NCBI GenBank assembly: GCA_003483925.1
Contig: DMXL01000007.1
Span: 30,504 to 94,503 of the forward strand
Length of the DNA stretch: 64,000 nt
Reading direction: 5' to 3'
Source of the DNA: Candidatus Peribacteria bacterium
GTDB lineage: Bacteria; Patescibacteriota; Gracilibacteria; Peribacterales; Peribacteraceae
A program made the translations under genes and the position numbers. Positions 10,101 to 33,659 of the stretch are shown in pieces (the first letter of the stretch is position 1; every line of letters begins with the position of its first letter). The notes beneath the pieces are model-generated. The model had not been told where the DNA came from. It made no database searches and saw only the letters and a program-made list of their open reading frames with translations.

Positions 10101-13100
10101 AGTAGCTCGAGGCCGCAGTCGAATCCGTCGCCCAGACGAGCTGCCCGGCTCCGTCCGTCTTGAGGACTTTGCCGGAGGCGGCGCCATCACCGTACGGGAA
10201 CGTGTAGGTGACGCCGTTCAATTTCAGAGTCGAGCCGAAGGATGCGGCACCCGTGATGGAGAGGGTTCCGGTGGCAGAGAGGTTGCCGGTGGCATTGAGA
10301 TTGCCGGTGACGATGGCGCCGCCGTTCAAGTAGGCCAAACCATCGACGGATAAGGTGCCGGAAGACGTGAGGCGATCTTGTGCGTGGACGAGGCGGCCGG
10401 ACATGGTGCCGATGACTTCGAGGGTGGTTTCGGGAGTGGTGGTGCCGATACCGACACTTCCGTCGAGAACGGTGGTCCCGGACACGGAGAGATTGCCCCA
10501 GATATCCGCACCTTGATCGACCCGCAGACTGGATCCCGACATGTTGCCGCGGATTTTGAAGTTGCCGGTCACCGTTCCGCCGCCGTTCAAGTAGGCGAGA
10601 CCGTCAATGGAGAGAGTCCCCGTGCCCGCGATATTACCGCTCGTCGTCTGGTTCCCCGCAATAATCGCTCCCCCGTTTAAGTACGCGATGCCGTCGATGG
10701 AGAGCGTGCCCGTTCCAGCGATGTTGCCGGAGGTATTCAGGTTTCCCGTGATGATGGTGTTGTTATTCAGATAGATCAATCCGTCGACAGAAAGAGCGCC
10801 GGACGAAGTGAGACGATCCTGGGCATGGACGAGACGGCCGGAAGCCGTGCCCATGATCTCGAGAGAGGAGCCTGTGATGGTCGAAGTGAGTGTGAAGACG
10901 GATCCTGCGAGGGTGAGACCCTGACCGGCGGCGTAGGAGCCGCCCGTATTGTCATCCGTCGCCCAGACGAGCTGCCCTGCGCCATCTGTCTTGAGCACTT
11001 TGCCGGAGGCCGCGCCATCGCCCCACGGGAAGGTGTAGGTGACGCCGTTTAAAGAAAGCGTGGAGCCGAAGACGGCAGCGCCATTGAAGTAGCTGGTACC
11101 GTCGATGGAGAGAGTGCCCGTGGCGGAGAAATTGCCGGTGGCATTGAGATTCCCCGTCACGACGGCGCCACCGTTTAAGTAGGCAAGACCGTCAATCGAG
11201 AGCGTTCCTGTGCCAGCGATGTTTCCGCTCGTCGTCTGATTCCCCGTAATGACCGCTCCCCCGTTCAAGTAGGCGAGGCCGTCGATGGAGAGCGTACCGG
11301 TTCCTGCGATGTTCCCTGTGGTATTGAAGTTGCCTGTCACGACAGTGTCCGCATTCAGGAAGACCAAACCATCCACGGAGAGAGCACCGGAGGAGGTCAG
11401 ACGATCCTGGGCGTGGACGAGACGGCCGGAGGCGGTCCCCATGACCTCGAGAGATGTCCCGGAGAAGGAATTGGAAAGTGAAAAGACCGTGCCTGCGAGG
11501 GTGAGACCTTGGCCGGCTGCCACGGAGCCGACGGTATTGTCGTCCGTGGCCCAGATGAGCTGGCCCGCTCCATCCGTTTTGAGAACTTTTCCTGAAGCGG
11601 CGCCATCCCCATACGGGAAGGTGTAGGTGACGCCGTTCAATTTCAGAGTCGAGCCGAAGGATGCGACACCCGTGATGGAGAGGGTGCCCGATCCTGCAAT
11701 GTTGCCGGTCGTCACTTGATTCCCCGTGATGACGGTGTTGTTGTTAAGGAAGATCAAACCATCCACGGAGAGGGCGCCGGACGAAGTGAGGCGATCTTGG
11801 GCGTGGACGAGGCGGCCGGAAGCGGTGCCCATGATCTCGAGTGAGGAACCTGTAAGGGTCGAGGAGAGAGAGAAGACGCTTCCCGCAAGCGTGAGACCCT
11901 GGCCGACTGTGTACGTCCCGCCCGTGGTGTCATCCGTGGCCCAGACGAGTTGCCCGGCACCGTTCGTCTTGAGGACTTTGCCGGAGGCGGCTCCGTCGCC
12001 CCAAGGGAAGGTGTAGGTGACACCATTGAGAGAGAGTGTGGAGCCGAAGATGGCGGCGCCATTGAAGTAGCTGGTGCCGTCGATGGAGAGCGTGCCCGTG
12101 GCGGAGAGATTGCCGGTGGCATTGAGATTCCCCGTCACGACGGCGCCACCGTTTAAGTAGGCCAGACCATCCACGGACAAGGTGCCGGAGGAGGCCAAGG
12201 AATCACGTACCCGTAAGCTATGACCGGACATGGTCCCAATAACTTCGAGGGCGGTTGTGGGACTTTGTGTGCCGATACCAACATTGGCATCGAAAATTGC
12301 ATCTCCGCTCGCTACATACAATCCCCAATTCGTGGCAGCTCCGCTTGCATAGCCATAGACTCCAATATTTTTCGTTGATGCTCCCACCGCCGAAGCCACC
12401 ACTCCGTATTTTGTCCCCGCACCTGCATGGTTTGAGTACAAATACGCCGCTCTATCGACGAGAGGATCTGCATTGTACACTTCAAATTTCCCCAACGGAT
12501 TCGCAAGTCCAATCGCCACTTGCCCAGTTGCAATATTTGTAAAGAGAAGTGGTGCTGCCCCTGTTCCCGTGACATAGAGGCTCTTGCCCGACATCGTGCC
12601 GGTTGCCGTGAGGTTCCCCGTGACGCGCGTATTGTTGTTGAGATACGTAAGGCCATCGATGGAAAGTGTACCGGTTCCCGCGATGTTCCCTGTGGTATTG
12701 AAATTCCCCGTCACAACCGTGTTGTTGTTGAGGAAGATCAAACCGTCCACGGACAGGGTGCCGGAAGACGTGAGGCGGTCTTGTGCATGAACGAGGCGGC
12801 CGGAGGCAGTCCCCATGACCTCAAGACTGGACCCCGTGATGGTCGAAGAGAGCGTGAAGACGGATCCGGCGAGCGTGAGACCCTGGCCGGCGGAGTAGCT
12901 GGTACCGGTATTCGCATCCGTGGCCCAGATGAGCTGGCCTGCTCCATCCGTTTTGAGCACTTTGCCGGAGGCAGAGCCGTCGCCATACGGGAACGTGTAG
13001 GTGACGCCGTTCAGTTTGAGTGTCGAACCGAAGGACGCGGCACCGGTGATGGAGAGAGTGCCCGATCCTGCAATGTTGCCAGTCGTCACAAGATTTCCTG

Positions 13101-16100
13101 TAATGAGAGCACCACCATTGAGGTAGGCCAGACCATCCACGGACAAGGTGCCGGAGGAGGCCAAGGAGTCACGCATGCGCAAGCTGTGACCGGACATGGC
13201 TCCGTTCACCTCGAGAGTAGTCGTTGGATTGCTTGTTCCGATACCGACACTGCCATCGTTTGCAATTCTCATCCTTTCGTAATTCGTACCAGTGACCCTC
13301 GTCCCGAAGGTCAGATACCCTTCATTCGTTGTATTGCCAATGTAGATTTCTGCCTGATCGTTGCCTGTCCAATAGATTTTGCTGCCATCATCAACAACAG
13401 CGAAGGATAGATTATTATCCGTTCCACGAACACCGAAACGGTTATTGACGTCCATTGTGTAGCCGGACGTCGGCGTCGCCACTCCAATACCAACCCAACC
13501 ATTGGCAATATCTGTGATAATGAGCGGCGATGCTCCTGTTCCCGTGACGTAGAGGCTCCTGCCCGACATCGTTCCGGTCGCCGTGAGATTGCCCGTAACG
13601 CGGGTGTTATTGTTCAAGTAGGTGAGACCGTCGATCGAGAGCGTGCCTGAGCCTGCGATGTTCCCCGTGGTATTCAGGTTTCCCGTGATCACCGTGTTGT
13701 TGTTGAGGAAGATCAAACCGTCCACGGACAGGGTGCCGGAAGACGTGAGGCGGTCTTGTGCATGAACGAGGCGGCCGGAGGCGGTCCCCATGACCTCAAG
13801 ACTGGACCCCGTGATGGTCGAAGAAAGCGTGAAGACGGATCCGGCGAGCGTGAGGCCCTGGCCGGCGGAGTAGCTGGTGCCGGTATTCGCATCCGTGGCC
13901 CAGATGAGCTGGCCCGCTCCATCCGTCTTGAGCACTTTTCCTGAAGCGGCGCCGTCTCCGTACGGGAAGGTGTAGGTGACGCCGTTCAATTTCAGAGTCG
14001 AGCCGAACGATGCGGCACCGGTGACGGAGAGGGTGCCGGAACCGGCGATATTGCCGGAGGTCACTTGGTTCCCCGTAATAACCGCTCCCCCGTTCAAGTA
14101 GGCGAGGCCGTCGATGGAGAGTACTCCGGAAGCGGAGAGGCCTCCCTTCACCCACAGCGCATCATCGGTCGCGAGGAGATTCGCGGCTTTGCGGTAGAGA
14201 TTCACGTCATACGTCCCCTGGTATCCGAAGAGCAGATGCGGATTCAAGACATTGGTGCCGTCCGTCGCATTGGCGCCGATATCGATGACGAGAGCGGGCT
14301 GGCCCGCAGCCACGGAACGGATGCGCGCACCCGTGCCGTTCACGTTCATGTCGAAGACAGAACCCGCAATGCGCGGAATACTATTCGTCTCAACTCTCAG
14401 CCCGCCCGAGGCGGTGAGGAGATCCTGCGCATGAAGCATGTTGCCGGACATGGTGCCGGCGACTTCGAGCGCGAGTCCGCTTTCGATCACCTGGGAAGCC
14501 GTCCCACCGACCTTGATGAGCAGCCCGCCCGTCATCGTGTCGCCCTGCACCATGACATACCGCGCGTCGCCGGCAGTCGTATCGAGACCGCCTTCATCAG
14601 TTGCCCAAACAAGCTGTCCCGCGCCATTCGTCTTGAGAACCTTTCCGGAAGAGGCGCCATCCCCGTACGGGAACGTATAAGTGACGCCATTGATGCGAAG
14701 GGTCGAACCGAAGACCGTGGCACCGTTTAAGTAGGATGTGCCGTCCACAGAGAGAGCGCCGGAGGACGTCAGGAGACTCTGCGCATGAATGACAGCGCCG
14801 GACATGGTGCCGGCGATCTCGAGCGCAAGGCCGCTCTCGATCACCTGGGAGGCCGTCCCGCCGACCTTGATGAGCAGCCCGCCCGTCATCGTGTCGCCCT
14901 GCACCATCACGTAGCGCCGGTCAGCCGATGTGGTATCCAAGCCACTGCCGGTCGTGTCATCGATCCCGCAGACGAGATTGCCACTCGCATCGGTCTCGAG
15001 AGCGCAGCTCACGAACGATGAGAACTTCACCGTCGCACCGGCGACCGTAAGATTGTCCTGCAGAGAGGCCGCCCCGTCGATCGAGAGGGTTCCCGAGGCG
15101 GCTAAGTTGCCTGATGTGCGGAGAGTGCCCGTTACCACCGTGTTGTTATTGAGATAGACGAGACCGTCGACCGAGAGGGAACCGGAAGCCGCGAGGTTCC
15201 CGTCGATGAGCGTGGCACCCGAGACGGCGAGCGAGCCCCAGATGTCCGCATTGCGATCGACGCGCAGGCTGGAGCCCGACATGTTGCCGCGGACTTTCAG
15301 GTTCCCCGTGACGGTGGCGCCGGCATTCAGGTAGGCGAGACCATCGACGGAGAGCGTGCCGGACGACGTGAGACGATCCTGCGCCCACACGCTGCGACCC
15401 GACATCGTCCCCATGATCTCGAGAGCGGTCCCGGAGAAGGAGTTCGAGAGCGAGAAGCCCGTGCCCGAGAGGGTGAGACCCTGACCGGCGGAGTAGTGAG
15501 TGCCGGTGTTCGCGTCCGTGGCCCACACAAGCTGCCCCGCACCGTTCGTCTTGAGCACTCTGCCCGAGGCAGCACCGTCACCGTAGGGGAACGTGTAGGT
15601 GACGCCATTCAATTTCAGCGTCGATCCGAAGAATGCGGCCCCTTCGATCGAGAGGGTACCGGAACCTGCGATATTGCCGGTGGTCACTTGATTCCCGGTG
15701 ATGAGAACGCCCGCATTGAGATAAGTCAGTCCATCCACAGATAGCGTGCCGGAAGCGGAGAGGTTCCCTGTGACGGATTCGTTTCCCGTGACGATCAAGC
15801 CGCCGTTCAAGGACGCAAGCCCGTCGATGGAGAGGGTGCCGGAGGCCGCGAGGTTGCCCGTGACGGATTCGTTTCCCGTGACGATCAAGCCGCCGTTCAA
15901 GTACGCAAGCCCGTCGATCGACAAGGTTCCCGAACCGGCGATATTGCCGGTCGTCGTGAAATTCCCCGTGACCACCGTGTCGCTGTTCAGGAAGGTGAGG
16001 CCGTCCACCGAGAGAGAGCCGGAGGAGGTCAGGCGATCTTGAGCATGGAGAATGAAACCGGACGCCGTTCCCACAACTTCGAGCAGCACACCCTCCTCCA

Positions 16101-18141
16101 CCGCCGGGATGATCGTGAGACTTCCCGCGGACATGATGAGCAGCCCTCCGGTCATTGTGTCACCGGAAGCCCGCACGTACCGGCGATCCGCATGTGCGAT
16201 CGACATTCCCGTTCCCGTACCGCCTGGACCCACGTCATCGATACCGCAGACGATGTTGCCGGCGGCATCCGTCTCGAGGTTGCAGGTGTCGTATCCTGCG
16301 AGCTTCACCGTATTGCCGAAAGATGCCGTCCCGGTGATGGAGATTGCGCCCGAGCCGCCGATGTTGCCGCCGGTGAGCAAGGTGGTCGCAATGAAGACGG
16401 CGCTGTTCAAGTAGCTGGTTCCGTCCACCGACAGCGTGCCAGAGGCCGAGAGGTTACCCGTGACGGATTCGTTCCCCGTCACGATCAAGCCGCCGTTCAA
16501 ATAGGCCAAACCGTCCACGGACAGGCTGCCGGAAGCAGAGAGTTGATCCTGTACATGGACCGTGCGGCCGGACATGGTGCCGGAAACCTCGAGAGCGAGA
16601 CCTGCTTCGATTGCTTCGGAGGCGGCCCCGCCCACGTGGATGAGGAGACCTCCGGTCATCGTGTCACCAGAAACATTCACGTACCGGTTGTCCGCATCAC
16701 CGATCTCGATGCCGCCCTCGTCCGTGCCGCAGATGAGCACGCCGGACTCCGTCGTGTCGATGGTATTGCAACCCCGCAGACCAGAGAGCAGGAGCGTCGT
16801 ACCAGAGATGGAACCTGCCACCTCGAGTCTCGCACCGGCCTCATTTTTGCCGATCGCCACCGAATCGCCGACCGAGGTCAAACGCACAACCGTCCCGTCA
16901 TCCGTCCATCCGGATATGGCATTCACGACAACCGTTCCCCCATCCGTAGTGGTATCTCCTCCTCCACCACCTCCGCCCCCCCCTCCACCACCGAATCGCC
17001 GATCGCTTCCGGTGCGCTCATCGAGAGGTTGTCGCCCCGTACCGATGGTGGGATTACCCTGATCATCAAGCGGGAAGTCCTTCCACACGGGCTTGCCGTA
17101 CTCGATCGTGAGGTACTGTCCGTCCGTGCCGGGTCCGATGAAGTCCCACATATTCGTCGGGCGGCCATAGACATCCCATCCGCTCGTCGCATTGGGCGCC
17201 CATGCCCACTCGCTCGCTCCGCTGCCCGGAGCCGCTCCGTACATCGGAGAACTTGCGGGACGGGCCACCATGCGTTCCCGCCTGCGTTCCTCAGCACGCA
17301 TCGCCACCTGGTGTGCCGGGGAATCCACCGGTACCCGCAGGAGCACCTCGGCACCCTTGCCGTCCTTGGACGGCTGTTGGGCGACGCCGAGGAACACGAA
17401 GCCGTCACTCATCTTGGCAGTCGCGCCCGCAGTGCTCTCGAGCGTGAGGCGGTGACGAAGGAGATCCGGATCCGTCGAGAGCGTCCGACTGGTCATGACA
17501 TGATTCGCATCGGTCTTCTTCGCCTCTTCGCGGATGGCATAGAGCGGCGAGACATTCGCCAATCCGTTCCCAAATGGGATCACCGTCTGCACGAGACTCG
17601 TCTTGGTCAACCGCACACCGGAGCCAGAGAGGAATTCTCTCGGCAGGTCCTTGAGCTGCATCACATTCCAAACCTGAGAGCCTCGCCCTGTGAGAAATGA
17701 AAGCCACTGAGTCGAAGGACCTCCGCTGCGATTGAGGAGGAGAAGAAAGACCATGAATGCGGCGCCGACGAGCGCGGAACGCACGGGCAGTTTCTGCTTC
17801 TCCGAAAGTGCATGAGGCAGCTCGACCGGTTGCGGCTGTGCCGGCGTCTCCGAAAGGACGACTGCGTGCGCGCGATGCCGGGCGATGTATCGCGTGACCT
17901 GCGCGCGCGACCACCCCGTGATCGCCTGCAAATACCGGCGGACCACCCCCCTCTCAGCACGCGGAAGAGACTCATACCGAACTGTCGTGAGGACCTGCTC
18001 GATACACTCCACACCACGCACCGAAGAATCGACCGGCACCCCACCTTCCGGAGAGCCGAGGAAGGCTCTCATGGAGGCGACCGAAGTCAGGGGGTGGGTG
18101 AAGGGATCCATGTGTGCGTTTTTTGTTTTGGGTGAGCCCAA
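7123..18141 (-). CDS. Giant (3672 aa) membrane-anchored, repeat-rich surface protein with tail-fibre-like repeats
   Basis: Single uninterrupted ORF. It starts at TTG 18141, or more likely at ATG 18111 (MDPFTHPL). The N-terminal soluble part is about 110 aa with an HTH-like VRRYLQAITGWSRAQVTRYIARH, followed by a hydrophobic anchor SALVGAAFMVFLLLLN. A G12 tract comes next, then dozens of G-N-x-x-x-S-G-x-LSVDGLAYLNGG type repeats. I count eight copies of LNGVTYTFP(Y/W)GDGAASGKVLKT.GAGQL.WATD. There is an ADYAEWF..PGELV motif at 9040-9060, and the tail is Ser- and Pro-rich. Confidence 0.85.
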   Translation of the reverse strand: MGSPKTKNAHMDPFTHPLTSVASMRAFLGSPEGGVPVDSSVRGVECIEQVLTTVRYESLPRAERGVVRRYLQAITGWSRAQVTRYIARHRAHAVVLSETPAQPQPVELPHALSEKQKLPVRSALVGAAFMVFLLLLNRSGGPSTQWLSFLTGRGSQVWNVMQLKDLPREFLSGSGVRLTKTSLVQTVIPFGNGLANVSPLYAIREEAKKTDANHVMTSRTLSTDPDLLRHRLTLESTAGATAKMSDGFVFLGVAQQPSKDGKGAEVLLRVPVDSPAHQVAMRAEERRRERMVARPASSPMYGAAPGSGASEWAWAPNATSGWDVYGRPTNMWDFIGPGTDGQYLTIEYGKPVWKDFPLDDQGNPTIGTGRQPLDERTGSDRRFGGGGGGGGGGGGDTTTDGGTVVVNAISGWTDDGTVVRLTSVGDSVAIGKNEAGARLEVAGSISGTTLLLSGLRGCNTIDTTESGVLICGTDEGGIEIGDADNRYVNVSGDTMTGGLLIHVGGAASEAIEAGLALEVSGTMSGRTVHVQDQLSASGSLSVDGLAYLNGGLIVTGNESVTGNLSASGTLSVDGTSYLNSAVFIATTLLTGGNIGGSGAISITGTASFGNTVKLAGYDTCNLETDAAGNIVCGIDDVGPGGTGTGMSIAHADRRYVRASGDTMTGGLLIMSAGSLTIIPAVEEGVLLEVVGTASGFILHAQDRLTSSGSLSVDGLTFLNSDTVVTGNFTTTGNIAGSGTLSIDGLAYLNGGLIVTGNESVTGNLAASGTLSIDGLASLNGGLIVTGNESVTGNLSASGTLSVDGLTYLNAGVLITGNQVTTGNIAGSGTLSIEGAAFFGSTLKLNGVTYTFPYGDGAASGRVLKTNGAGQLVWATDANTGTHYSAGQGLTLSGTGFSLSNSFSGTALEIMGTMSGRSVWAQDRLTSSGTLSVDGLAYLNAGATVTGNLKVRGNMSGSSLRVDRNADIWGSLAVSGATLIDGNLAASGSLSVDGLVYLNNNTVVTGTLRTSGNLAASGTLSIDGAASLQDNLTVAGATVKFSSFVSCALETDASGNLVCGIDDTTGSGLDTTSADRRYVMVQGDTMTGGLLIKVGGTASQVIESGLALEIAGTMSGAVIHAQSLLTSSGALSVDGTSYLNGATVFGSTLRINGVTYTFPYGDGASSGKVLKTNGAGQLVWATDEGGLDTTAGDARYVMVQGDTMTGGLLIKVGGTASQVIESGLALEVAGTMSGNMLHAQDLLTASGGLRVETNSIPRIAGSVFDMNVNGTGARIRSVAAGQPALVIDIGANATDGTNVLNPHLLFGYQGTYDVNLYRKAANLLATDDALWVKGGLSASGVLSIDGLAYLNGGAVITGNQVTSGNIAGSGTLSVTGAASFGSTLKLNGVTYTFPYGDGAASGKVLKTDGAGQLIWATDANTGTSYSAGQGLTLAGSVFTLSSTITGSSLEVMGTASGRLVHAQDRLTSSGTLSVDGLIFLNNNTVITGNLNTTGNIAGSGTLSIDGLTYLNNNTRVTGNLTATGTMSGRSLYVTGTGASPLIITDIANGWVGIGVATPTSGYTMDVNNRFGVRGTDNNLSFAVVDDGSKIYWTGNDQAEIYIGNTTNEGYLTFGTRVTGTNYERMRIANDGSVGIGTSNPTTTLEVNGAMSGHSLRMRDSLASSGTLSVDGLAYLNGGALITGNLVTTGNIAGSGTLSITGAASFGSTLKLNGVTYTFPYGDGSASGKVLKTDGAGQLIWATDANTGTSYSAGQGLTLAGSVFTLSSTITGSSLEVMGTASGRLVHAQDRLTSSGTLSVDGLIFLNNNTVVTGNFNTTGNIAGTGTLSIDGLTYLNNNTRVTGNLTATGTMSGKSLYVTGTGAAPLLFTNIATGQVAIGLANPLGKFEVYNADPLVDRAAYLYSNHAGAGTKYGVVASAVGASTKNIGVYGYASGAATNWGLYVASGDAIFDANVGIGTQSPTTALEVIGTMSGHSLRVRDSLASSGTLSVDGLAYLNGGAVVTGNLNATGNLSATGTLSIDGTSYFNGAAIFGSTLSLNGVTYTFPWGDGAASGKVLKTNGAGQLVWATDDTTGGTYTVGQGLTLAGSVFSLSSTLTGSSLEIMGTASGRLVHAQDRLTSSGALSVDGLIFLNNNTVITGNQVTTGNIAGSGTLSITGVASFGSTLKLNGVTYTFPYGDGAASGKVLKTDGAGQLIWATDDNTVGSVAAGQGLTLAGTVFSLSNSFSGTSLEVMGTASGRLVHAQDRLTSSGALSVDGLVFLNADTVVTGNFNTTGNIAGTGTLSIDGLAYLNGGAVITGNQTTSGNIAGTGTLSIDGLAYLNGGAVVTGNLNATGNFSATGTLSIDGTSYFNGAAVFGSTLSLNGVTYTFPWGDGAASGKVLKTDGAGQLVWATDDNTGGSYAAGQGLTLAGSVFTLTSTITGSSLEIMGTASGRLVHAQDRLTSSGALSVDGLIYLNNNTIITGNLNTSGNIAGTGTLSIDGIAYLNGGAIIAGNQTTSGNIAGTGTLSIDGLAYLNGGGTVTGNFKIRGNMSGSSLRVDQGADIWGNLSVSGTTVLDGSVGIGTTTPETTLEVIGTMSGRLVHAQDRLTSSGTLSVDGLAYLNGGAIVTGNLNATGNLSATGTLSITGAASFGSTLKLNGVTYTFPYGDGAASGKVLKTDGAGQLVWATDSTAASSYSAGQGLTLAGSVFTLTSTITGSSLEIMGTASGRLVHAQDRLTSSGALSVDGLIYLNNNTVITGNLNTSGNIAGTGTLSIDGVSYLNGGAVITGNQVTSGNIAGSGTLSIDGLSYLNAGVLVTGNANVTGNLAATGTLSIDGLAYLNGGGTVTGNFKIRGNMSGSSLRVDQGADIWGNLSVSGTTVLDGKVGIGTTAPETTLEVMGTMSGRRLSVSTSQTTSTGAIYLNMDGNGTGMLIDSEATNAPGLVIDMNAKSGSAPHLLFGYQGTFDTNLYRASGSTLATDDKLYLKALNADNRESLIIDTEETTGSQNVFKVISDVVGDEDISFRVTADGHVYSDNAYASTGADYAEWFFTSQEDLKPGELVCIDLDRKNAVIRCPDAADPNVVGIVSTRPAFVGNTITGADGIPVPGTVLVGLIGQIPAKVIVEKGLAIRTGDALTPASIPGYARRAQAGEPTVGVALEPLSAGQGSVSVLISRRNSSLTVEAVEQHVATAVAELKIEDEVQLLVTGAVDRLDPARLVNLLLAYTGSTLLKAPVVPSKQELVSAVTDAVTRQSLTVTGSLTVANQFTVSGPAFFRSDLTVRGAMRVTNLYVDGTIHAAAVSTTSGATLRGTVNVEGTLLLNGKTFSPEAIDTSTGAAVDIESIMVRKGLTVLGNVTISGLAKFLGTVDVQGELRVSSNQAGYAFIPKTGTAVTVEFSRPFYATPVVSASADTPVLYGVTTATSTGFSIRLAEPARQPILFSWLALATNAPKTAEGMGSQPEPQLLPFPVDSLGVPVSSSAIWNGCIRGQVPLDSDGRPFNCSRYHQDYVWTHPDLLMEFNWNAERNPRLILPDGFQPVVAEDIVITPPPSEPIVETGSTVAPDEPPAGSGSTVETGSSSSSESSVVSSASSSSSEQSSALSSEAPESSSSSSSSSEQQSSAASSAVSSASSEAAQSSVSSSAEGQGSSEASSAADTPPEETPPQEPSAEPPPVVPAESTPAEQSVP

Positions 18142-20437: not shown

Positions 20438-20462
20438 ACCAGCATGCTAGCAGGAATCTCCC

Positions 20463-23533: not shown

Positions 23534-24613
23534 CTAGTTCTTGACCCACTGGCCGTTTCCAACGGTCTTCGCCGCACCGGACAATTCCAACATCGTCAGC
23601 GTCGCATTCACGGGACCCGCCGCGAGACCTGCGCGCTGGGCGATGTCCCCGACCGATTGCGGCATGGTTGTGAGTGCTCCGTGGACCTTCGCCTCCTGAT
23701 TGGAACGCGGAGTGAAGGAGGATGTCGATCGGTCTGCAGCGACGATGCCGACTTCCTGCAACACGTCCTGAGGAGTCGTGACGAGCTTGGCCAAGCCGCG
23801 GGAGATGATCTGATGACAGCCGATGAAATTTTCGTCGAAGATCTGTCCCGGAACCGCAAATACATCGCGTCCGTAGTCCAACGCCAGATCGGCGGTGATG
23901 AGTGCTCCGCTCCCCTCGCCCGCCTCGAGCACGATCGTCCCCAAGGAGAGTCCCGCGATGATGCGATTGCGCGCGGGGAACGTAAACTTATCGGGAGTCG
24001 TATCGAGTGGAAATTCCGAAAGGAGGAGGCCTCCCCCTTTGACGATTTCCTCCGCGAGGCGGGCGTTCTTCGCCGGAAAGATGGAGGCCAATCCATGACC
24101 GAGCGCCGCGACAGTTTTCCCTCCGGCGCGCATGGTCTCCCTGGCCACTACGGCATCAATCCCTTCGGCCAATCCGCTCACCGTGACAACCCCGGCCGCA
24201 ACGATCGGTCCTACAAATGCCTCCGCCACACGCTGGCCGTAGGGCGATATCTTGCGCGTACCGACGAGCGCGATACACGGTTGATCCAGAATCGTGAGAT
24301 CTCCCCGGTAATAGAGAAACATCGGCGGGTCGCCGATCTCCTTCAGTCGAGACGGATAGGCATCATCTTCGATGGTGAGGAAATGCACGTCGCGCTTCTT
24401 GAGCTCCGCTTCGTACTGATCGACATCAAATTCTTCCAGCCGGTTGAGGACCTTCATGACCGTATCGCCGCGGCAGCCGAGCTTCGTGAGGAATTCCTCG
24501 CCGATCGCGCCCAGTGCCCGGTCGAGATCGCCGAACGCCCCCTTGAGCATGTCCGCACGCTTCTTCGTGAGAAGATGGAGCCAAGACCAGGTGAGGGCGG
24601 CGGTACGATCCAT
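23534..24613 (-). CDS. dprA: DNA-processing protein A (DprA/Smf)
   Basis: Motifs LVGTRKISPYG, GLAEGIDAVVARE, FPARNRIIAGLS and VLEAGEGSGALITA. The ORF track N-terminus (to 24754) is the antisense of the tRNA, so I place the start at the ATG at 24611-24613 (MDRTAALTW). Confidence 0.85.
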   Translation of the reverse strand: MDRTAALTWSWLHLLTKKRADMLKGAFGDLDRALGAIGEEFLTKLGCRGDTVMKVLNRLEEFDVDQYEAELKKRDVHFLTIEDDAYPSRLKEIGDPPMFLYYRGDLTILDQPCIALVGTRKISPYGQRVAEAFVGPIVAAGVVTVSGLAEGIDAVVARETMRAGGKTVAALGHGLASIFPAKNARLAEEIVKGGGLLLSEFPLDTTPDKFTFPARNRIIAGLSLGTIVLEAGEGSGALITADLALDYGRDVFAVPGQIFDENFIGCHQIISRGLAKLVTTPQDVLQEVGIVAADRSTSSFTPRSNQEAKVHGALTTMPQSVGDIAQRAGLAAGPVNATLTMLELSGAAKTVGNGQWVKN

Positions 24614-24669
24614 AATGGAAAGAAATTGTTGCGCATCTGCTGCTCCCACGCCACAATTTCTCTCGCTAA

Positions 24670-24744
24670 GCCGCCCTAGCTCAGTGGTAGAGCATCGGTA
24701 TCGTAAACCGAGGGTCGTGGGTTCAAATCCCATGGGCGGCTCCA
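24670..24744 (+). tRNA. tRNA-Thr (anticodon CGU), CCA encoded
   Basis: Hand-folded cloverleaf. The acceptor stem GCCGCCC/GGGCGGC is perfect. D arm is GCTC-AGTGGTA-GAGC. The anticodon arm TCGGT-ATCGTAA-ACCGA gives anticodon CGT. T arm is GTGGG-TTCAAAT-CCCAT, followed by T and CCA. Confidence 0.93.
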
Positions 24745-24747
24745 ATC

Positions 24748-24776
24748 TTGACATCTTCTATCAAGAGAAGTACGGT
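24748..24776 (+). promoter_or_regulatory. Candidate promoter of the asd leader (TTGACA-N17-TACGGT)
   Basis: TTGACA lies at 24748-24753 and TACGGT at 24771-24776. The leader-peptide ATG follows 8 nt later. Confidence 0.4.
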
Positions 24777-24784
24777 GCGATCAG

Positions 24785-24832
24785 ATGGTCTCCACCGTCC
24801 CCCTCACGGCCACCACGAAGCGCATCCCCTGA
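24785..24832 (+). CDS. Putative attenuator leader peptide 1 (15 aa: MVSTVPLTATTKRIP)
   Basis: The sequence is ATG GTC TCC ACC GTC CCC CTC ACG GCC ACC ACG AAG CGC ATC CCC TGA. Four of its 15 codons are Thr. The ACC-ACG-AAG codons overlap stem segment 1. Confidence 0.5.
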   Translation: MVSTVPLTATTKRIP

Positions 24833-24860
24833 TGTGCTGAGGTTTCGTGAGTATCGAATC

Positions 24861-24886
24861 ACAACCTCAGCGGAGGTTGTTTTTTG
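24861..24886 (+). terminator. Attenuator terminator 1
   Basis: ACAACCTC-agcg-GAGGTTGT followed by a T-run. The left arm can alternatively pair with GAGGTT at 24839-24844. Confidence 0.65.
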
Positions 24887-24908
24887 TATTCCTTCCCCCT
24901 TTCTTTCT

Positions 24909-24953
24909 ATGGCACACCGCCAAGCGACGAAGACCACGAAGCACACGCCCTAA
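24909..24953 (+). CDS. Putative attenuator leader peptide 2 (14 aa: MAHRQATKTTKHTP)
   Basis: The sequence is ATG GCA CAC CGC CAA GCG ACG AAG ACC ACG AAG CAC ACG CCC TAA. It has four Thr and two Lys codons. The same text forms the C-terminus of a spurious 169-aa track ORF. Confidence 0.5.
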   Translation: MAHRQATKTTKHTP

Positions 24954-24981
24954 TCAGGTCGAGGTTTCGTGATCAAGAACT

Positions 24982-25009
24982 GCAACCTCGGCCTCGGGGT
25001 TGTTTTTTT
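24982..25009 (+). terminator. Attenuator terminator 2
   Basis: GCAACCTCG-gcct-CGGGGTTG followed by T7. The left arm can alternatively pair with GAGGTT at 24961-24966. Confidence 0.65.
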
Positions 25010-25032
25010 ATATTCCCTTTCCCATCTTCCCC

Positions 25033-26109
25033 ATGAAAAACATTCCTTCCCCCTCCGGCGAGCGTCTGCCGGTGGAAATTCTCGGCGCCACCGGCATGGT
25101 GGGCCAGCACCTCATCACGCGGCTCACGGAGCATCCGTGGTTCCGCATCGAAGCGCTCAAAGCATCGGAGCGCTCCGCGGGCAAACGCTACGGAGACACT
25201 GTGGATTGGGCTCTCCCGCAACCCATTCCCAGAGACATAGCGCAGATGGAAGTGCTCGCCTGCGAACCTTCATTGCCGGGACGTATCGCGCTCTCCGGAC
25301 TCGATGCCGATATCGCCGGACCCATCGAGGAGCAGTTCGCAGAGTTCGGTTACCCGGTCGTCTCGAACGCGCGCAACCACCGATTCGATCCCGATGTGCC
25401 GCTGCTCATTCCCGAGGTGAACCGCGATCACCTCGCAATCATCGCCCATCAACGTTTCGCCGTCGGCTGCATCATCACCAATCCCAACTGTTCGACCGTC
25501 GGCATCACAATGGCCTTGAAACCGCTTCAGGATGCGTTCGGCGTCGAAGCGGCGGACATCGTCACCCTCCAGGCGGCATCGGGCGCGGGCAACCGACCGG
25601 GAGTCTCGAGTCTGCGTCTCATCGACAACACCATTCCTTTCATCGCCGGTGAAGAGGAAAAAATCCAAACAGAGCCGAAAAAAATCCTCGGCACGTATCG
25701 TGACGGTGTCATCCGTCCAGCCGAGATGGCGATCAGCGCGCAGTGCAATCGCGTCCCCGTGCGCGACGGGCACACGGCCTGCGTAAAAGTCGCCTTACGA
25801 ACGCGCGCTTCCCTTGAGAGCGTGATGGCGGCATTCGAGTCGTACGGAAGTCCGCTCAAAGAGCTTGAGCTGCCTTCGGCTCCCGACCATCCTCTCATCG
25901 TTCATCACCATCCCGCTCACCCGCAACCGTACTTTCATCGCGATCTTGAAGATGGAATGGCCGCAAGTGTCGGGCGAATCCAGCCGTGCGGCGTACTCGA
26001 CTACAAGTTCGTCGTGCTTTCGCACAATACCGTCCGCGGCGCAGCAGGTGCGGCTATTCTCAATGCCGAGCTCCTCGTTCGCACCGCCCTCTCGCAGGCA
26101 ATTCGGTGA
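25033..26109 (+). CDS. asd: Aspartate-semialdehyde dehydrogenase
   Basis: The ORF track starts at 25000. The ATG at 25033 gives MKNIPSPSGERLPVEILGATGMVGQ (Rossmann GxxGxxG). NPNCSTVG carries the active-site Cys. RVPVRDGHT and HNTVRGAAGAAILNAELL are also present. Confidence 0.85.
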   Translation: MKNIPSPSGERLPVEILGATGMVGQHLITRLTEHPWFRIEALKASERSAGKRYGDTVDWALPQPIPRDIAQMEVLACEPSLPGRIALSGLDADIAGPIEEQFAEFGYPVVSNARNHRFDPDVPLLIPEVNRDHLAIIAHQRFAVGCIITNPNCSTVGITMALKPLQDAFGVEAADIVTLQAASGAGNRPGVSSLRLIDNTIPFIAGEEEKIQTEPKKILGTYRDGVIRPAEMAISAQCNRVPVRDGHTACVKVALRTRASLESVMAAFESYGSPLKELELPSAPDHPLIVHHHPAHPQPYFHRDLEDGMAASVGRIQPCGVLDYKFVVLSHNTVRGAAGAAILNAELLVRTALSQAIR

Positions 26110-26122
26110 ACGGCGCCACCAG

Positions 26123-26156
26123 AAACAACCGCTTCGCGACAGAGGCGGTTGTTTTT
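26123..26156. terminator. Bidirectional terminator between asd and the convergent TPR gene
   Basis: AAACAACCGC-ttcgcgacagag-GCGGTTGTTT followed by tt. It overlaps the TAA stop of the minus-strand gene. Confidence 0.6.
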
Positions 26157-29952: not shown

Positions 29953-29961
29953 TTAGGCTAG

Positions 29962-29990
29962 ATTCTGCATGATTTACGGCCTTTTGTAAA
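29962..29990 (-). promoter_or_regulatory. Candidate promoter of the ATPase gene (TTTACA-N17-CAGAAT)
   Basis: Reverse complement of 29985-29990 is TTTACA and of 29962-29967 is CAGAAT. The ATG follows 9 nt later. Confidence 0.4.
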
Positions 29991-30053: not shown

Positions 30054-31727
30054 TCAATACACCTCCTTCCGGTAGCAATTCTCGCAGTAGATCTGCATCT
30101 CCGTATCCGCGGGGTAGCTCGTGACCATGGGGACGGAACACTTCGCGCACAAGCCTTCGCGCAGCTTCCACGGGTTCTGCTCGCGAGAACGCCGTAGGTG
30201 GCGGCAGTCCGGGCAAGAGTCCGGGAGAGGGATGCGGCGCGCGCGATATACGGCGAGCTCTTGGGGAACGATCTTGTAATTCTTCCCACACTCTTCGCAC
30301 ACGAGCACGCTTTCCATCGCGTCGTTCGCAACCTGATCGATCGCATCGGGCACCCGGTACGTCTGCGCGCGGGGTACGCGCGGCTCGGGCGGGTGCCAGC
30401 GATAGCCGAGTTCCTTCGCCTGCTCTTCCATAAGCGGGAAACGCTCCATCGCTGCGGTCTCGTTGTACGCAAATGGCGCGCAGGAAGCCGGGAAGAATTC
30501 TCCCCATTCACCGTTCACTCTCATGGCCGCGATGATCCGTGGCACGAGGCGCTCGTATTCGTCTTTCGTATACTGCTTGTTCAGGATGCAGTACTGGCTG
30601 CGGCGGAGCCCGATGCATCCGAAAATGTCTTTTGAAGCGGTGATGAAAAAGGAGTAGTGCACGCGCTGGCACCCCGACGTGCGCAGACAGAAGCTCGTGC
30701 CGTACGACGCCGCGACGGATGTGGTTTCGTAGATGAGCTCACTGTCCCTCCCGCCGGTATAAGCGTCCATGGCATCCCGATACAGGTTCACGTCGTAGAG
30801 ATACCGTCCGTCCACGGAATCGAATGCTCCGTAACATTGCAGACAGTTCTTGCAACGGAAGAGATTGTCACCGGTGACGTTCTCGCACTGGATGTTCATG
30901 AGATTGCGGCGAATCGCCTTGCGCCGGATCCCGCGGTACATGCTCTCAGCCATCTTCACCATCTTGCGGGAGCCGAAGTCGAACTCCCGAAGCTTTGCTT
31001 CATATGCATCCTTCGTGAGTTGCTCGTTGAGGAAGTAGTATCGCTTCCCGCGGAGATTGCTGCACATGAAGCAGTCCAAGCAATTGCGACAGTCCAGGAG
31101 AAACGCACAGTTTGCGCAGTCGCTGCAGAAGAAGAGGTAGCGGCTGTCAGTGCAGTTCATGCATTCCACGCACTCGTAAAGGAAGGATGATTTCTTCACC
31201 TGCGTACAATCCGTGCAATCGGAGCTCCGACTCCCGCGGTAGGTGTAGAGCATGTCCTGGGATTGATGTGTACGCGCGCAGAGGTAGCAATTCTTGCTTT
31301 CGCGCACGTCGCTGTTGAACTCGCAGTTCTCCGAGAGCTCCACGCGCAGCGATGGGAGCGGGATCGCGAGCGCGAAGCTCCGGAATTGATCGAAGAACGG
31401 GCGCGCAGCATCGTATGGACGTCCGTATGCAAGCGGATCGAAGGCATCGGAGAACCAGTGGTTCTTCTCACAGACTTTGTGAGGAGAGTCGGGAGAGAAC
31501 ACCGAGATGATGTCCTGTCCCGTGACATCGCATTTTCGCCGGTAGAGCTGCCGCTCGTTTCGAAAGCTCATCCTCCTTCGCTGCCGACAGTCGGGGCACA
31601 GGGTCGGTGGCGGGATGAGCTCCTTCTTCCCGGCGAAGACAGGCGAAACTCTCTCGAGGAACGTGAGGTCGTCCTCCGTGACATCGAAGGGGGCACGGCA
31701 CCAAGAGTTCAAGCAAATCTTCTGCAT
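30054..31727 (-). CDS. Cys-rich array paralogue G1 (uncharacterised zinc-ribbon/Cys-ladder family)
   Basis: 557 aa. The N-terminus reads MQKICLNSWCRAPFDV..PPPTLCPDCRQRRR..YRRKCDVTGQDII. A Cys ladder follows. The C-terminal module keeps all Cys (VCEECGKNYKI..CPDCRH..CAKC..YCENCYRKEVY*). Confidence 0.85.
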   Translation of the reverse strand: MQKICLNSWCRAPFDVTEDDLTFLERVSPVFAGKKELIPPPTLCPDCRQRRRMSFRNERQLYRRKCDVTGQDIISVFSPDSPHKVCEKNHWFSDAFDPLAYGRPYDAARPFFDQFRSFALAIPLPSLRVELSENCEFNSDVRESKNCYLCARTHQSQDMLYTYRGSRSSDCTDCTQVKKSSFLYECVECMNCTDSRYLFFCSDCANCAFLLDCRNCLDCFMCSNLRGKRYYFLNEQLTKDAYEAKLREFDFGSRKMVKMAESMYRGIRRKAIRRNLMNIQCENVTGDNLFRCKNCLQCYGAFDSVDGRYLYDVNLYRDAMDAYTGGRDSELIYETTSVAASYGTSFCLRTSGCQRVHYSFFITASKDIFGCIGLRRSQYCILNKQYTKDEYERLVPRIIAAMRVNGEWGEFFPASCAPFAYNETAAMERFPLMEEQAKELGYRWHPPEPRVPRAQTYRVPDAIDQVANDAMESVLVCEECGKNYKIVPQELAVYRARRIPLPDSCPDCRHLRRSREQNPWKLREGLCAKCSVPMVTSYPADTEMQIYCENCYRKEVY

Positions 31728-31799
31728 ACGCTGATTCTAGCAAGGGATGAGGGGCATGTAGTACGTATTATGAGAGATTGGTTCTCCTGCCCATACCCC
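31728..31799 (-). promoter_or_regulatory. Array junction cassette with extended -10 (TGCTAGAAT) for G1
   Basis: Reverse complement of 31734-31742 is TGCTAGAAT, 6 nt from the ATG. The cassette contains the shared string gaggggcatgtagtacgtattatg. Confidence 0.5.
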
Positions 31800-31910: not shown

Positions 31911-33611
31911 TCAGTATACTTCTTTCAGATAACACGATTCGCAGTACACAATTTCCGGTCTCTCGGGCGCATAGGTCGTCTCCATTGACTTGCCGCACTT
32001 CGCACACGCACGCTTCCAGAGCTTGCGTGGATTGCGTAAGGCCCTGCGTGCGGCATGGCGCACTTCGAAATGCCGGCGCGGGAGAGGCACATGCAGTTTT
32101 CGATAGAGACCAAGCTCGCTCGGCTGGATTTTGAATAGTTTCCCGGATACCTCGCAGCGGATGGCCCACTGGAGCACATCATCGGGAACGGCATCGATCG
32201 TTTCGGGAAGACGATCGCCAGAGACCACCTTTGTGACAGATGGCATTTCCTCGCGCATCTCGCGCCACCGCCATCCGCGTTTCTTCACCTCCTCCTTCGT
32301 GAGCGGATAGTAATCCTGAGCGACGGTTTCGTTGTACGAAAAGGCGGAGAGCGTGGGAGGGAAAAACTCTCCCCATGTCCCCTCTTTTCGCATCTGTTCA
32401 ATAATCTTCGGAGTCAATCGTCCGTATTCTTCTTCCGTGTACTGCGTATTCAGAATGCAGTGCCGCATCTTCTTCAAGCCCACGCAGCCGAAACAATCGT
32501 TGGCACCCTGGAGACAGTAGATGGAGTAGCAGAGATTCGAGACACCGAACGACTGGTAGTAGCAACAAATGAGCCGTTCGACGCCCGCTCCCACGTAGGC
32601 GCAGTTGTACACGAGGTTCATCTTGTCACCCCATGCGTCGACGTCCTGCGCGTCCGATCCGCCCATCATGCAGTTCGTGCAATGACGACAATCGCGCATG
32701 TCCATGCAATCGTAGGAATCATGCATGTTCTTGCAGGAGATGAGGTTGTCGCCCGTTACCTCTTCACTCATCACCGTACGAGTGGCTTTGCGCGGGTATC
32801 TGAGGAAAAGAGCCTCCGCTTGCGCACGCAGCGCCTCCACGCCGGCATGCGTGTGAAGGGCGAATGCCGCCTTCCGGAGAGCGAACTCCTCCTTGGAAAC
32901 CGGCTCATTGAAGATATGATACTCCTTCTGGTGCAGATTCACGCACCCGATGCAGTTCCGGCAACTTGAGCAATCAAGGAGGAACGCGCTATCCGAGCAG
33001 TTGCTACAGAAGCGCGAATACAGCAGATGAAAACACTCCTGGCAGTGGATGCACTCGTAACAGAGCTCGCACTGCTTGAGGCTGTAGAAATCGCAACAAT
33101 CCTTGAGGAGCGCGTAGACTTCGCCATAGTAGGAGTCCTGCGCCTGCTCCCCGTCAAAGATCAGGTAACAGTTCTGCAGACGGTATCCGTCGTGTGCGTA
33201 GTCGCTGTTGATGTTGTCAGTGAGCGCGAGGATGGAGATTTTCGGGACGGCGTACCACAGATCGCGGAATTGATCGAAGAACGGGCGCGAGAAATCGTAC
33301 GCCCTACCGAAGGAAAGAGGATCCCAGTTATCCCCCCACCAGCACGCAGGACAGAAGACGGTAAAGGGGGAATCGGCAGGATAGATGGCGATGATGCGCT
33401 TCTTGCAATGATCGCACACACGCGGGTACAGCGTCCGTTCATTGCGCATGGCCAACCTTCTCTGCTGACGGCAGTCGAGGCAAAAGGCGGGGGGAGGAAC
33501 GGATTCTTTCTTTCTATTGAATACAGGAGAGATCTTGTCATAGAACGCAAGATCATCCTGCGCGATCTCGAAGGCGGAAGCGCACCACGGGTTGGCGCAG
33601 ATTTTCTGCAT
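31911..33611 (-). CDS. Cys-rich array paralogue G2
   Basis: 566 aa. It starts MQKICANPWCASAFEI..PPPAFCLDCRQQRR, contains CFGCVGLKKMRHCILNTQYTEEEY, and ends CAKCGKSMETTYAPERPEIVYCESCYLKEVY*. Confidence 0.85.
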   Translation of the reverse strand: MQKICANPWCASAFEIAQDDLAFYDKISPVFNRKKESVPPPAFCLDCRQQRRLAMRNERTLYPRVCDHCKKRIIAIYPADSPFTVFCPACWWGDNWDPLSFGRAYDFSRPFFDQFRDLWYAVPKISILALTDNINSDYAHDGYRLQNCYLIFDGEQAQDSYYGEVYALLKDCCDFYSLKQCELCYECIHCQECFHLLYSRFCSNCSDSAFLLDCSSCRNCIGCVNLHQKEYHIFNEPVSKEEFALRKAAFALHTHAGVEALRAQAEALFLRYPRKATRTVMSEEVTGDNLISCKNMHDSYDCMDMRDCRHCTNCMMGGSDAQDVDAWGDKMNLVYNCAYVGAGVERLICCYYQSFGVSNLCYSIYCLQGANDCFGCVGLKKMRHCILNTQYTEEEYGRLTPKIIEQMRKEGTWGEFFPPTLSAFSYNETVAQDYYPLTKEEVKKRGWRWREMREEMPSVTKVVSGDRLPETIDAVPDDVLQWAIRCEVSGKLFKIQPSELGLYRKLHVPLPRRHFEVRHAARRALRNPRKLWKRACAKCGKSMETTYAPERPEIVYCESCYLKEVY

Positions 33612-33619
33612 GGGGGGCT

Positions 33620-33628
33620 AGTATAGCA
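33620..33628 (-). promoter_or_regulatory. Extended -10 (TGCTATACT) for G2
   Basis: Reverse complement of 33620-33628 is TGCTATACT. An 8-nt spacer (AGCCCCCC) separates it from the ATG. Confidence 0.45.
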
Positions 33629-33659
33629 AACATCGTCATAGTGAGGGGCCCCGCACAAA

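Follow-up and report, generated by a model that had tools for sequence, protein, structure and literature searches.

Two tandem Thr/Lys-codon leader-peptide attenuators proposed to control asd in a Candidatus Peribacteria bacterium

In the enterobacterial thrL leader (Rfam RF00506), a short open reading frame (ORF) with clustered codons for threonine (Thr) and a second amino acid, isoleucine, mutually exclusive 1:2, 2:3 and 3:4 helices and an intrinsic terminator precede aspartate-family genes, and the regulatory logic is multivalent. Here we describe a region of the same design, with lysine (Lys) as the second amino acid, in a 64,000-nucleotide (nt) stretch of a Candidatus Peribacteria genome (contig DMXL01000007.1, positions 30,504 to 94,503 of the forward strand; the window, numbered from its first letter). 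The region lies directly upstream of asd, the gene for aspartate-semialdehyde dehydrogenase, whose product is the common precursor of Lys/diaminopimelate (DAP) and Thr/methionine. Based on sequence elements, their conservation and covariation and the thermodynamic switching of their folds, we propose, with a probability of roughly 80%, that two serial ribosome-mediated leader-peptide transcription attenuators make asd depend on the charging of Thr-tRNA and probably of Lys-tRNA. In contrast to this element, thrL regulates thrABC, is a single unit and is led by a Shine-Dalgarno sequence, and no sequence or structure similarity between the two is detectable. The element described here is a tandem duplicate, precedes a monocistronic asd, starts with an apparently leaderless ORF and belongs to an uncultivated groundwater host of the candidate phyla radiation (CPR).

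The two short ORFs of the Salmonella mgt leader are mutually unrelated and sense different signals; they are not a duplicated amino-acid attenuator and serve no amino-acid pathway gene. Control by the mycobacterial polycysteine ORFs reportedly does not rely on a canonical 2:3/3:4 intrinsic-terminator switch. As in the present element, the mgtCBR leader carries two short ORFs in series, each of which controls alternative stem-loops and transcription into the coding region (PMC3641672). The polycysteine short ORFs of mycobacteria attenuate downstream genes of their operon and likewise combine a short ORF at a leaderless 5' end with codon-specific translation speed that sets downstream expression (bioRxiv 10.1101/834739); they differ in concerning cysteine and another phylum, and the leaderless status of the present ORF is read from promoter spacing only. 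Tandem T-boxes and contiguous riboswitches (PMC12452182) are also serial terminator-based duplicates with two consecutive read-through decisions, but their large aptamers sense tRNA or ligand directly, whereas here the translating ribosome would be the sensor. With tandem attenuators, leaderless regulatory short ORFs and tandem T-boxes or riboswitches, each unusual feature of the asd element has a precedent of its own, and the element as a whole looks like a new and well-supported version of textbook ribosome-mediated attenuation.

No Rfam leader family matched window positions 24300-25400 at E <= 10 or nine related loci at E <= 1. RF00506 (Thr_leader), RF00230 (T-box), RF00168 (lysine riboswitch) and RF01732 (asd RNA motif) had no match in the window or in its relatives, and permissive Rfam scans of the window region and 15 related loci returned only tRNAs, an unrelated S-adenosylmethionine (SAM) riboswitch and noise. 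Rfam contains neither the two leader ORFs nor the motif, and gene callers would overlook them. In the searchable literature we found neither leader-peptide attenuation in Peregrinibacteria/Patescibacteria nor a Thr/Lys leader on asd. A survey of 2010, in which Firmicutes were added, described leader-peptide systems as known until then only from Proteobacteria and Actinobacteria (PMC2965389).

Architecture of the tandem units

All the elements listed in a first-pass annotation of this stretch were present, at or within 1-4 nt of where it had placed them (Table 1). Two homologous units occupy 24785-24886 and 24909-25010; the annotated extents of the units hold, except that the second ends at 25010, and the asd ATG is at 25033. 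The two units, suggested to be a duplication of the whole, align at 78% column identity, and pyrimidine tracts precede both leader 2 and asd. Each unit opens with a leader ORF that has the run ACC-ACG-AAG and, as expected, four Thr codons. Leader 1 has its regulatory codons at Thr8, Thr10, Thr11 and Lys12 (24806-24820) and leader 2 at Thr7, Lys8, Thr9, Thr10, Lys11 and Thr13 (24927-24947); Thr and Lys together make up 11 of the 29 codons of the two leaders, against a background of ~10-11% (binomial P ~5e-5 to 2e-4). The competing pairings proposed for unit 1, CACGAA (24814-24819) with TTCGTG (24844-24849) and GAGGTT (24839-24844) with AACCTC (24864-24869), are correct, as are their equivalents in unit 2. 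The leader stop codon, annotated as lying 7-10 nt before segment 2, is in fact nearer to it, 6-7 nt from GAGGTT and 3-4 nt from the full 9-nt segment. Codon cluster, stop placement, 1:2 helix, antiterminator and terminator, which are the sequence-testable features of the ribosome-mediated attenuator class, are all found here.

Table 1 Features of the asd leader region in the window, and leader peptides of related loci
Feature	Position	Strand	Description
Putative leader promoter	24748..24776	+	-35 TTGACA 24748-24753, 17-nt spacer, -10 TACGGT 24771-24776; putative, read from the sequence
Leader ORF 1	24785..24832	+	15 codons, MVSTVPLTATTKRIP*; 4 Thr and 1 Lys codons
Unit-1 1:2 helix (anti-antiterminator)	24803..24851	+	minimum-energy fold
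Unit-1 segment 2	24836..24844	+	GCUGAGGUU (DNA: GCTGAGGTT); antiterminator 5' arm; perfect complement of 24863-24871
Unit-1 intrinsic terminator	24861..24885	+	ACAACCUC-AGCG-GAGGUUGU 24861-24880 and U6 24880-24885; as DNA, hairpin ACAACCTC-AGCG-GAGGTTGT, then T6
Unit-1 segment 3	24863-24871	+	AACCUCAGC (DNA: AACCTCAGC); common to antiterminator and terminator 5' arm
Pyrimidine-only tract before leader-2 ATG	24889..24908	+	no Shine-Dalgarno sequence
Leader ORF 2	24909..24953	+	14 codons, MAHRQATKTTKHTP*; 4 Thr and 2 Lys codons
Unit-2 1:2 helix and segment 2	24935..24971	+	CACGAAGC 24935-24942 with GGUUUCGUG 24963-24971; minimum-energy fold
Unit-2 segment 2	24958-24966	+	GUCGAGGUU (DNA: GTCGAGGTT); pairs with 24984-24992
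Unit-2 intrinsic terminator	24982..25009	+	GCAACCUCG-GCCU-CGGGGUUGU 24982-25003 and U7 25003-25009
Unit-2 segment 3	24984-24992	+	AACCUCGGC (DNA: AACCTCGGC); terminator 5' arm
Second pyrimidine-rich tract, before asd ATG	25010..25032	+	no space for a promoter between terminator 2 and asd
asd	25033..26109	+	aspartate-semialdehyde dehydrogenase, archaeal/eukaryotic 'asd_EA' type; TIGR00978 E = 2.4e-121, NF006416 E = 3.3e-130
asd's own terminator	26126..26156	+	CAACCGCUUC-GCGACA-GAGGCGGUUG and U5
tRNA-Thr(CGU) gene	24670..24744	+	neighbour, not a conserved part of the element
L001 leaders			unit 1 MTRARITTVTTKRAPEAS; unit 2 MDETRTTATKTTTKPP
L161 leaders			unit 1 MRSHSLTTKTTKRAPAC; unit 2 MAMNTTAMQTTTKPP
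L162 leaders			unit 1 MTFSSITTTTQKRAPEAS; unit 2 MVTPSTATKTTKPP
L163 leaders			unit 1 MILARLTTKTTKRAPAC; unit 2 MTSSTKTKISKPP
L165 leaders			unit 1 MSATVTTTKTKTARKRG; unit 2 MTTKTKTARKRG
L168 leader			unit 1 MQLIVTTTTKTTKRAERQR; single unit
L169 and L171 leader			unit 1 MASAVFTTKTTKTTPLSG; single unit

A scanner found four terminator-like sites in the 1.1 kb around the units (0.8 expected). The whole + strand of the window gave four terminator hits, three of which are the two attenuator terminators and the terminator of asd itself, and the leader region folded better than 200 of 200 shuffles (z = -4.55). The 22-23 nt of pyrimidines that follow each U-run fill the whole gap to the next ATG, and because no room is left for a promoter before leader 2 or asd, asd can be expressed only if each of the two terminators is conditional.

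In the mechanism that we propose, transcription would start ~0-2 nt before the first AUG, from the TTGACA-17-TACGGT promoter. The Thr/Lys codons (ACC/ACG/AAG), as segment 1, would act as the 5' strand of a helix by pairing with GGU and a GUGnGUG motif that overlap and flank segment 2, while segment 2 could alternatively pair with its complement, segment 3, the 5' arm of the terminator that segment 4 and the U-run would complete. When Thr- and Lys-tRNA are plentiful, the ribosome would reach the stop codon, inside or 3-12 nt before segment 2, and cover segment 2, upon which the 3:4 terminator would form and RNA polymerase would halt; untranslated RNA would terminate too, via 1:2 and 3:4. A ribosome stalled at the Thr/Lys codons would melt 1:2 and free segment 2, so that 2:3 could form and the polymerase could read through. 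Read-through of unit 1 would then expose unit 2, which would repeat the test, and asd would be made only after both checkpoints. With one checkpoint after the other, the termination efficiencies should multiply, and the response should become sharper and deeper.

Conservation and coding of the leaders

DNA around Asd homologues (58-69% identical) was collected by protein search followed by look-up of the encoding contigs. Eight related Peribacteria/Patescibacteria loci, with seven distinct leader sequences, have the element immediately before asd, as two units in L001, L161, L162, L163 and L165 and as one unit in L168, L169 and L171 (two lineages, three loci); 15 units were compared in all. 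The tandem arrangement is found in five lineages, the window included. The idea that Thr/Lys attenuators control asd is thereby strengthened, in that the leader ORFs are kept in all eight loci together with their T-T-K core, and all 15 units are predicted to switch when folded. The element is not universal in the clade, since L164, in which dapA and asd overlap, has no attenuator before either gene. A metagenome contig scan with Asd returned no close Peribacteria relative, the best match being 58% identical.

The units cluster by position (1 with 1, 2 with 2) in L001, L161, L162 and L163, so the duplication is older than the divergence of these loci. The two L165 units are each other's closest relatives (78% identity), a pattern of sequence similarity that indicates a second duplication or gene conversion. 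The tandem state has thus been gained or retained on more than one occasion, and this suggests that it is useful. Profiles built with nhmmer from four and then 13 units detected no extra copy in the window and, in ~170 asd loci, only the orthologous positions and a marginal match in L022 (E = 0.03). This lack of further copies led us to reject both a mobile or repeated element and a wider regulon within the window. When the hairpin pattern GCTGAGGTT-N12-42-AACCTCAGC was run against viral contigs, it returned 24 generic palindromic hairpins and no true unit.

The gene upstream of the element varies by locus (ABC permease, nitroreductase, recJ or dprA), and L001, L162, L165 and L169 have no tRNA-Thr gene there, while that of L163 is encoded on the other strand. 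Because the upstream neighbours differ and the tRNA gene is mostly absent or inverted, the element belongs to asd and not to the tRNA. The first-pass annotation had tied the ACG codons of the leaders to the tRNA-Thr(CGU) gene and placed it about 40 nt before the promoter. The ~40 nt separate the end of the tRNA gene from the leader ATG, the -35 box starting 4 nt after the tRNA gene, and we rejected the functional link, as the adjacency is not conserved and the relatives use ACC far more than ACG; the adjacency is probably incidental. The tRNA gene sits in the dprA-asd gap, on the asd strand in the window (24670-24744) and on the dprA strand in L163 (2333-2405), which amounts to a local inversion.

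These neighbourhoods also bear on whether the hairpins are simply constitutive terminators or insulators of the upstream unit (the tRNA-Thr gene in the window, the ABC permease in L001 and L162), with asd being expressed from elsewhere. We find this scarcely credible. The lack of a separate terminator between the window tRNA gene and unit 1 is in its favor, but most loci have a promoter between the upstream gene and unit 1, the pyrimidines after each U-run leave no space for an asd promoter, the element tracks asd while the upstream gene differs in every lineage, and a conserved antiterminator and leader ORF would be purposeless. Transcripts that read through from the window tRNA gene would stop at terminator 1.

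Across the 15 units, Thr or Lys accounts for 103 of 241 leader codons (43%, against a background of ~10%), and all four kinds of Thr codon are used (ACC 45, ACG 17, ACA 7, ACT 5). Orthologous leaders in the relatives retain a TT(K)TTK core. Within it, T-T-K persists through synonymous changes while the codons before the core diverge freely, and conservation of the peptides is confined to the Thr/Lys core, both termini varying freely. The invariant AAG follows the ATG at a distance of 15, 30, 33, 36 or 39 nt, always in frame. Nine of the 15 units have as their stop codon the UGA of a conserved GCUGAGG; in the others it precedes GAGG by 9-12 nt. This codon pattern is what would be predicted from selection on translation of the regulatory codons, not on the peptide or an RNA motif alone, and suggests that the leader ORFs are translated. 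An alternative genetic code with UGA as Gly, as in Gracilibacteria, was rejected: purC, rpe, tpiA and asd are full length and end in TGA, and UGA is therefore a genuine stop in this genome.

The same data argue against a trans-acting switch in which an RNA-binding protein, an uncharged tRNA or a small ligand recognizes ACC-ACC-AAG or GCUGAGGUUU and the ORFs are incidental. Such a switch would agree with the near invariance of segments 2 and 3, which resembles that of ligand- or protein-binding sites, with a regulatory region made of a short direct repeat (ACCACCAAG twice) and with a leader 2 that has no Shine-Dalgarno sequence. We nevertheless regard it as improbable, given that the ATG keeps a fixed short distance from the -10 box, that the frame is kept across five leader lengths, that all 15 units place the stop within segment 2 or shortly upstream of it, and that Thr is kept via four synonymous codons. 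Moreover, no T-box, lysine riboswitch, asd motif or other Rfam family was matched at E <= 10 in the window or E <= 1 in relatives, and units of ~100 nt are too short for a T-box.

As for the amino acids sensed, real attenuators that respond to Thr only, with the AAG codons kept for pairing in the 1:2 helix or for spacing, seem to us unlikely but not negligible. All 29 leader Lys codons of the 15 units (in the window, 24818-24820, 24930-24932 and 24939-24941) are AAG and none is AAA, compared with ~31% AAA among the Lys codons of window genes, which fits a constraint at the nucleotide level, and distant thr-operon leaders have Thr runs without Lys (10 Thr and no Lys codons in L172; 8 Thr codons in L022). 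Against a Thr-only sensor, Lys codons are found specifically in the leaders of stand-alone asd genes (Peribacteria, and Vicinamibacterales with TTKTTTRKR) and not in thr-operon leaders, a distribution that fits multivalent control of a branch-point enzyme, and the AAG codons are not consistently paired in minimum-energy folds. Exclusive use of AAG could also reflect the choice of a tRNA-Lys isoacceptor, besides an RNA-pairing constraint.

Translation of the two leaders would start in different ways. TTGACA/TTTGCA boxes followed after 17/18 nt by TAnnnT precede leader 1 in L001, L161, L162, L165, L168, L169, L171 and L022, and the -10-like TAnnnT ends 6-10 nt before the leader-1 ATG wherever the promoter is readable (the -35 box of L163 is unclear). 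In the window, the -10 box ends 8 nt before this ATG; the promoter was not called by a strict consensus scanner, and its -10 box matches the consensus at only 3/6 positions. From the spacing we infer that the mRNA is leaderless or nearly so and that leader 1 is probably translated in this way. On the - strand of the window, -10-like hexamers (TAGCAT, TAGAAT, TATACT and CAGAAT) end 6-9 nt before an ATG and come without a Shine-Dalgarno sequence upstream of rpe (20438-20460) and of the gene ending at 31727 (31728-31750), and at 33612-33635 and 29953-29975; this suggests that leaderless mRNAs are common in the genome. After every attenuator terminator, in all related loci, a 20-25-nt C/T tract without a Shine-Dalgarno sequence leads to the next ATG, be it of leader 2 or of asd. 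Because asd must be translated, the tract is a workable initiation region in this lineage, and it may replace the purine-rich ribosome-binding site as a lineage-specific mode of initiation. The upstream region of other window genes also ends in a C-run (e.g. 'cccc ATG').

Folding and covariation

In 12 of 13 naked units, the minimum-energy fold consisted of a long imperfect 1:2 helix and the terminator, with the Thr/Lys codons paired to the GGU(U) of segment 2 and to the downstream GUGnGUG motif. The 1:2 register put forward in the first-pass annotation, CACGAAGC:GUUUCGUG, was recovered as the minimum-energy choice in window unit 2, but unit 1 prefers CUCACGG (24803-24809) with UCGUGAG (24845-24851) plus ACC (24812-24814) with GGU (24841-24843). 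This helix of unit 1 encloses an inner hairpin, AGCGCAUC (24819-24826)/GAUGUGCU (24831-24838), that contains the stop codon. What the units share in 1:2 is a longer, imperfect helix that encloses a covarying inner hairpin.

For the 15 units, RNAalifold gave a consensus helix that is the 2:3 antiterminator, GCUGAGGUU:AACCUCAGC. Of its cells 94.8% are paired, compared with 24-54% when the partner is slid by 1-3 columns, and it carries a single compensatory change, U-A to C-G in window unit 2. The terminator and the hairpin abutting segment 2, scored on an anchored pseudo-alignment of fixed-length segments, have seven pairs with changes on both sides. Their covariation score is 0.228; shuffles score 0.140 +/- 0.017, with none of 500 reaching the observed value, and the score is <=0.104 when slid. 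In the inner hairpin, five of eight pairs are altered on both sides across units, and in the terminator A-U alternates with G-C at ACAACC/GCAACC. Covariation in relatives, named beforehand as a check, was thus found for the terminator and the inner hairpin but, apart from the one compensatory pair, not for the 2:3 helix.

Ribosomes were modelled on the 15 units as a mask that makes the A-site codon and 10 nt unavailable and that, at the stop codon, extends to stop +13. All 15 units favored the terminator state, by 4-13 kcal/mol, when free of ribosomes. A ribosome placed at the last Thr/Lys codon made the antiterminator equal to or better than the terminator state in 11 of the 15 units and left it at most 2.6 kcal/mol short in 14. 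The antiterminator also formed in all units modelled when the transcript ended before segment 4, and because segment 4 is not yet made at that point, the antiterminator would form first in the stalled state. A ribosome at the stop codon covered segment 2 and let the terminator state win by 7-16 kcal/mol in 15 of 15, the mask to stop +13 abolishing the antiterminator in every unit. The comparison of alternative structures, also suggested beforehand, gave the predicted switch in all 15 units, and in this model their constrained folding follows classical attenuation logic.

Since termination is the ground state of the naked RNA, short RNAs should be abundant, and trans-acting attenuator small RNAs and leader peptides of this kind are known from Sinorhizobium (rnTrpL and peTrpL; PMC6614838 and PMC7298713). 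Peribacteria reportedly lack most amino-acid synthesis (PMC4736985). One could accordingly imagine that the terminated RNAs of ~100 nt or their peptides act in trans, with the control of asd in cis reduced to a secondary role or, in an auxotrophic symbiont, to a vestige, but we judge this very improbable, considering that the peptides are conserved only in their Thr/Lys core and that, among the loci examined, the element occurs only at asd or thr-pathway genes.

Several points weigh against serial Thr/Lys attenuation of asd. The 2:3 helix is nearly invariant, so that conservation and register, rather than covariation statistics, are what support it; the register of the 1:2 helix varies between units. 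In L001, the stalled state of unit 1 does not favor the antiterminator (+7.9 kcal/mol), and the bias of naked unit 2 towards the OFF state is only 4.3 kcal/mol. Initiation at leader 2 without a Shine-Dalgarno sequence raises a question, as it does at the similar tract of asd, and the all-AAG Lys codons could result from RNA pairing rather than Lys sensing. In addition, Ca. Peribacter riflensis from the same aquifer is reported to have few amino-acid biosynthesis genes, only alanine, serine and glycine synthesis being possible (PMC4736985). With so few of these genes, Thr/Lys feedback may not match the use of asd, which here may chiefly supply DAP for peptidoglycan. Searches of the 64-kb window by tblastn with ThrA (the query covering the aspartokinase domain), ThrB, ThrC and DapA from related loci found no other aspartate-family gene.

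Wider occurrence and genomic setting

A simple scan of all fetched asd loci for Thr-rich short ORFs and terminators found further leader candidates. In loci of the Vicinamibacterales/Acidobacteriota type (L048 2693-2850, L121 1133-1290, L037 2778-2935, L110, L116, L118 and L050), a leader lies directly upstream of asd. These leaders encode ~30 aa with Thr/Lys/Arg codons (TTKxTTRKR..., e.g. MFARTTTKPTPRKRVPTTGTSRVGGVCALGA), appear leaderless with a -10 box ~8 nt before the ATG, and have a strong terminator, a clear antiterminator and a clear 1:2/2:3/3:4 architecture; from their sequences, they look like an uncatalogued family of asd attenuators in Acidobacteriota. Thr-run leaders with terminators also precede asd-containing operons, at L172 266-405 (thrA-asd-thrB-thrC) and L022 246-366 (aspartokinase...asd), and further ones lie at L002 ~306-480, L003 266-428 and L007 ~257-430 and at ~1200-1500 in L041, L052, L061, L064 and L078. 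Metagenome-assembled genomes (MAGs) of Ignavibacteriales and Anaerolineae are among their sources. No leader of this wider set reaches an Rfam threshold, the single match below threshold being that of the unrelated Ignavibacteriales leader of L003 to Leu_leader, with 31.6 bits against a gathering score of 50.

The leaders of L048, L121, L172 and L022 resemble the window element in that they precede an asd of the asd_EA type, have a -10 box that ends 6-8 nt before the leader ATG, and pair their Thr codons (ACC/ACG) with a downstream GGUGGUG/GUG motif; in L172 the stop codon likewise lies within GGCUGAGG. Unlike the window element, they are single units with peptides of 19-31 aa and different terminators and antiterminators, they belong to other phyla, and their nhmmer similarity to it is absent or, in L022, marginal.

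These likenesses raise the possibility, which we offer tentatively and hold to be doubtful, that the tandem Thr/Lys attenuator is part of a widespread, uncatalogued family of leaderless attenuators on asd_EA-type asd genes, spanning Peribacteria/Patescibacteria and Vicinamibacterales and related to leaders on thr operons of further uncultivated phyla, and that in a CPR symbiont with a reduced genome and, reportedly, no Thr or Lys synthesis it couples asd and DAP synthesis to the tRNA charging of imported amino acids. If so, the ribosome would link the synthesis of cell-wall precursors to the supply of host-derived amino acids, and tight transcription-translation coupling in CPR would be demonstrated; because the mechanism needs kinetic coupling, the presence of the attenuator implies coupling between RNA polymerase and the lead ribosome in CPR cells. 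A conserved CPR example, together with those from Acidobacteriota, Ignavibacteriales and Anaerolineae, would widen the phylogenetic range of leader-peptide attenuation. Its duplicated serial design would make the element well suited to studies of the sharpening of a response by attenuators in tandem and of ribosome initiation in these lineages. Attenuation of asd also predicts that Peribacteria should care about Thr/Lys supply at the asd step, which conflicts with, or refines, the view that they have nearly no amino-acid synthesis.

The window asd is monocistronic, and the next gene downstream is convergent. The asd terminator (CAACCGCTTC-GCGACA-GAGGCGGTTG-T5) starts and finishes like the attenuator terminators (ACAACC...GGTTGTTTTT); lying between convergent genes, it may work in both directions. 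The closest genomic relative of the window Asd is that of a Candidatus Peribacteraceae MAG (66% identity). Contigs with an identical Asd protein come from Rifle-aquifer samples, SAMN03842452 being one of the samples that contain the locus, and six contigs from Rifle-type samples are identical to the window across the whole leader and add no variation. In L052, from an Anaerolineales MAG, a SAM riboswitch (RF00162, 80.8 bits) at 4119-4238 lies just downstream of asd and presumably controls a gene of the methionine branch.

The GC content of the window is 57%, and that of Ca. Peribacter riflensis, which has a 1.25-Mb genome and very large extracellular proteins, is 58.5% (PMC4736985). A 3672-aa ORF on the - strand (7123-18141), with long, highly repetitive Gly/Thr/Ser-rich units and a Ser-rich C-terminus, resembles those proteins. 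The GC content and this ORF both agree with the Ca. P. riflensis description, and the host is accordingly placed among the Peregrinibacteria/Peribacteria of the CPR. Also on the - strand, 30054-31727 and 31911-33611 encode two neighbouring paralogues, Cys-rich proteins of ~560 aa (MQKIC.N.WC...) that contain many CxxC motifs.

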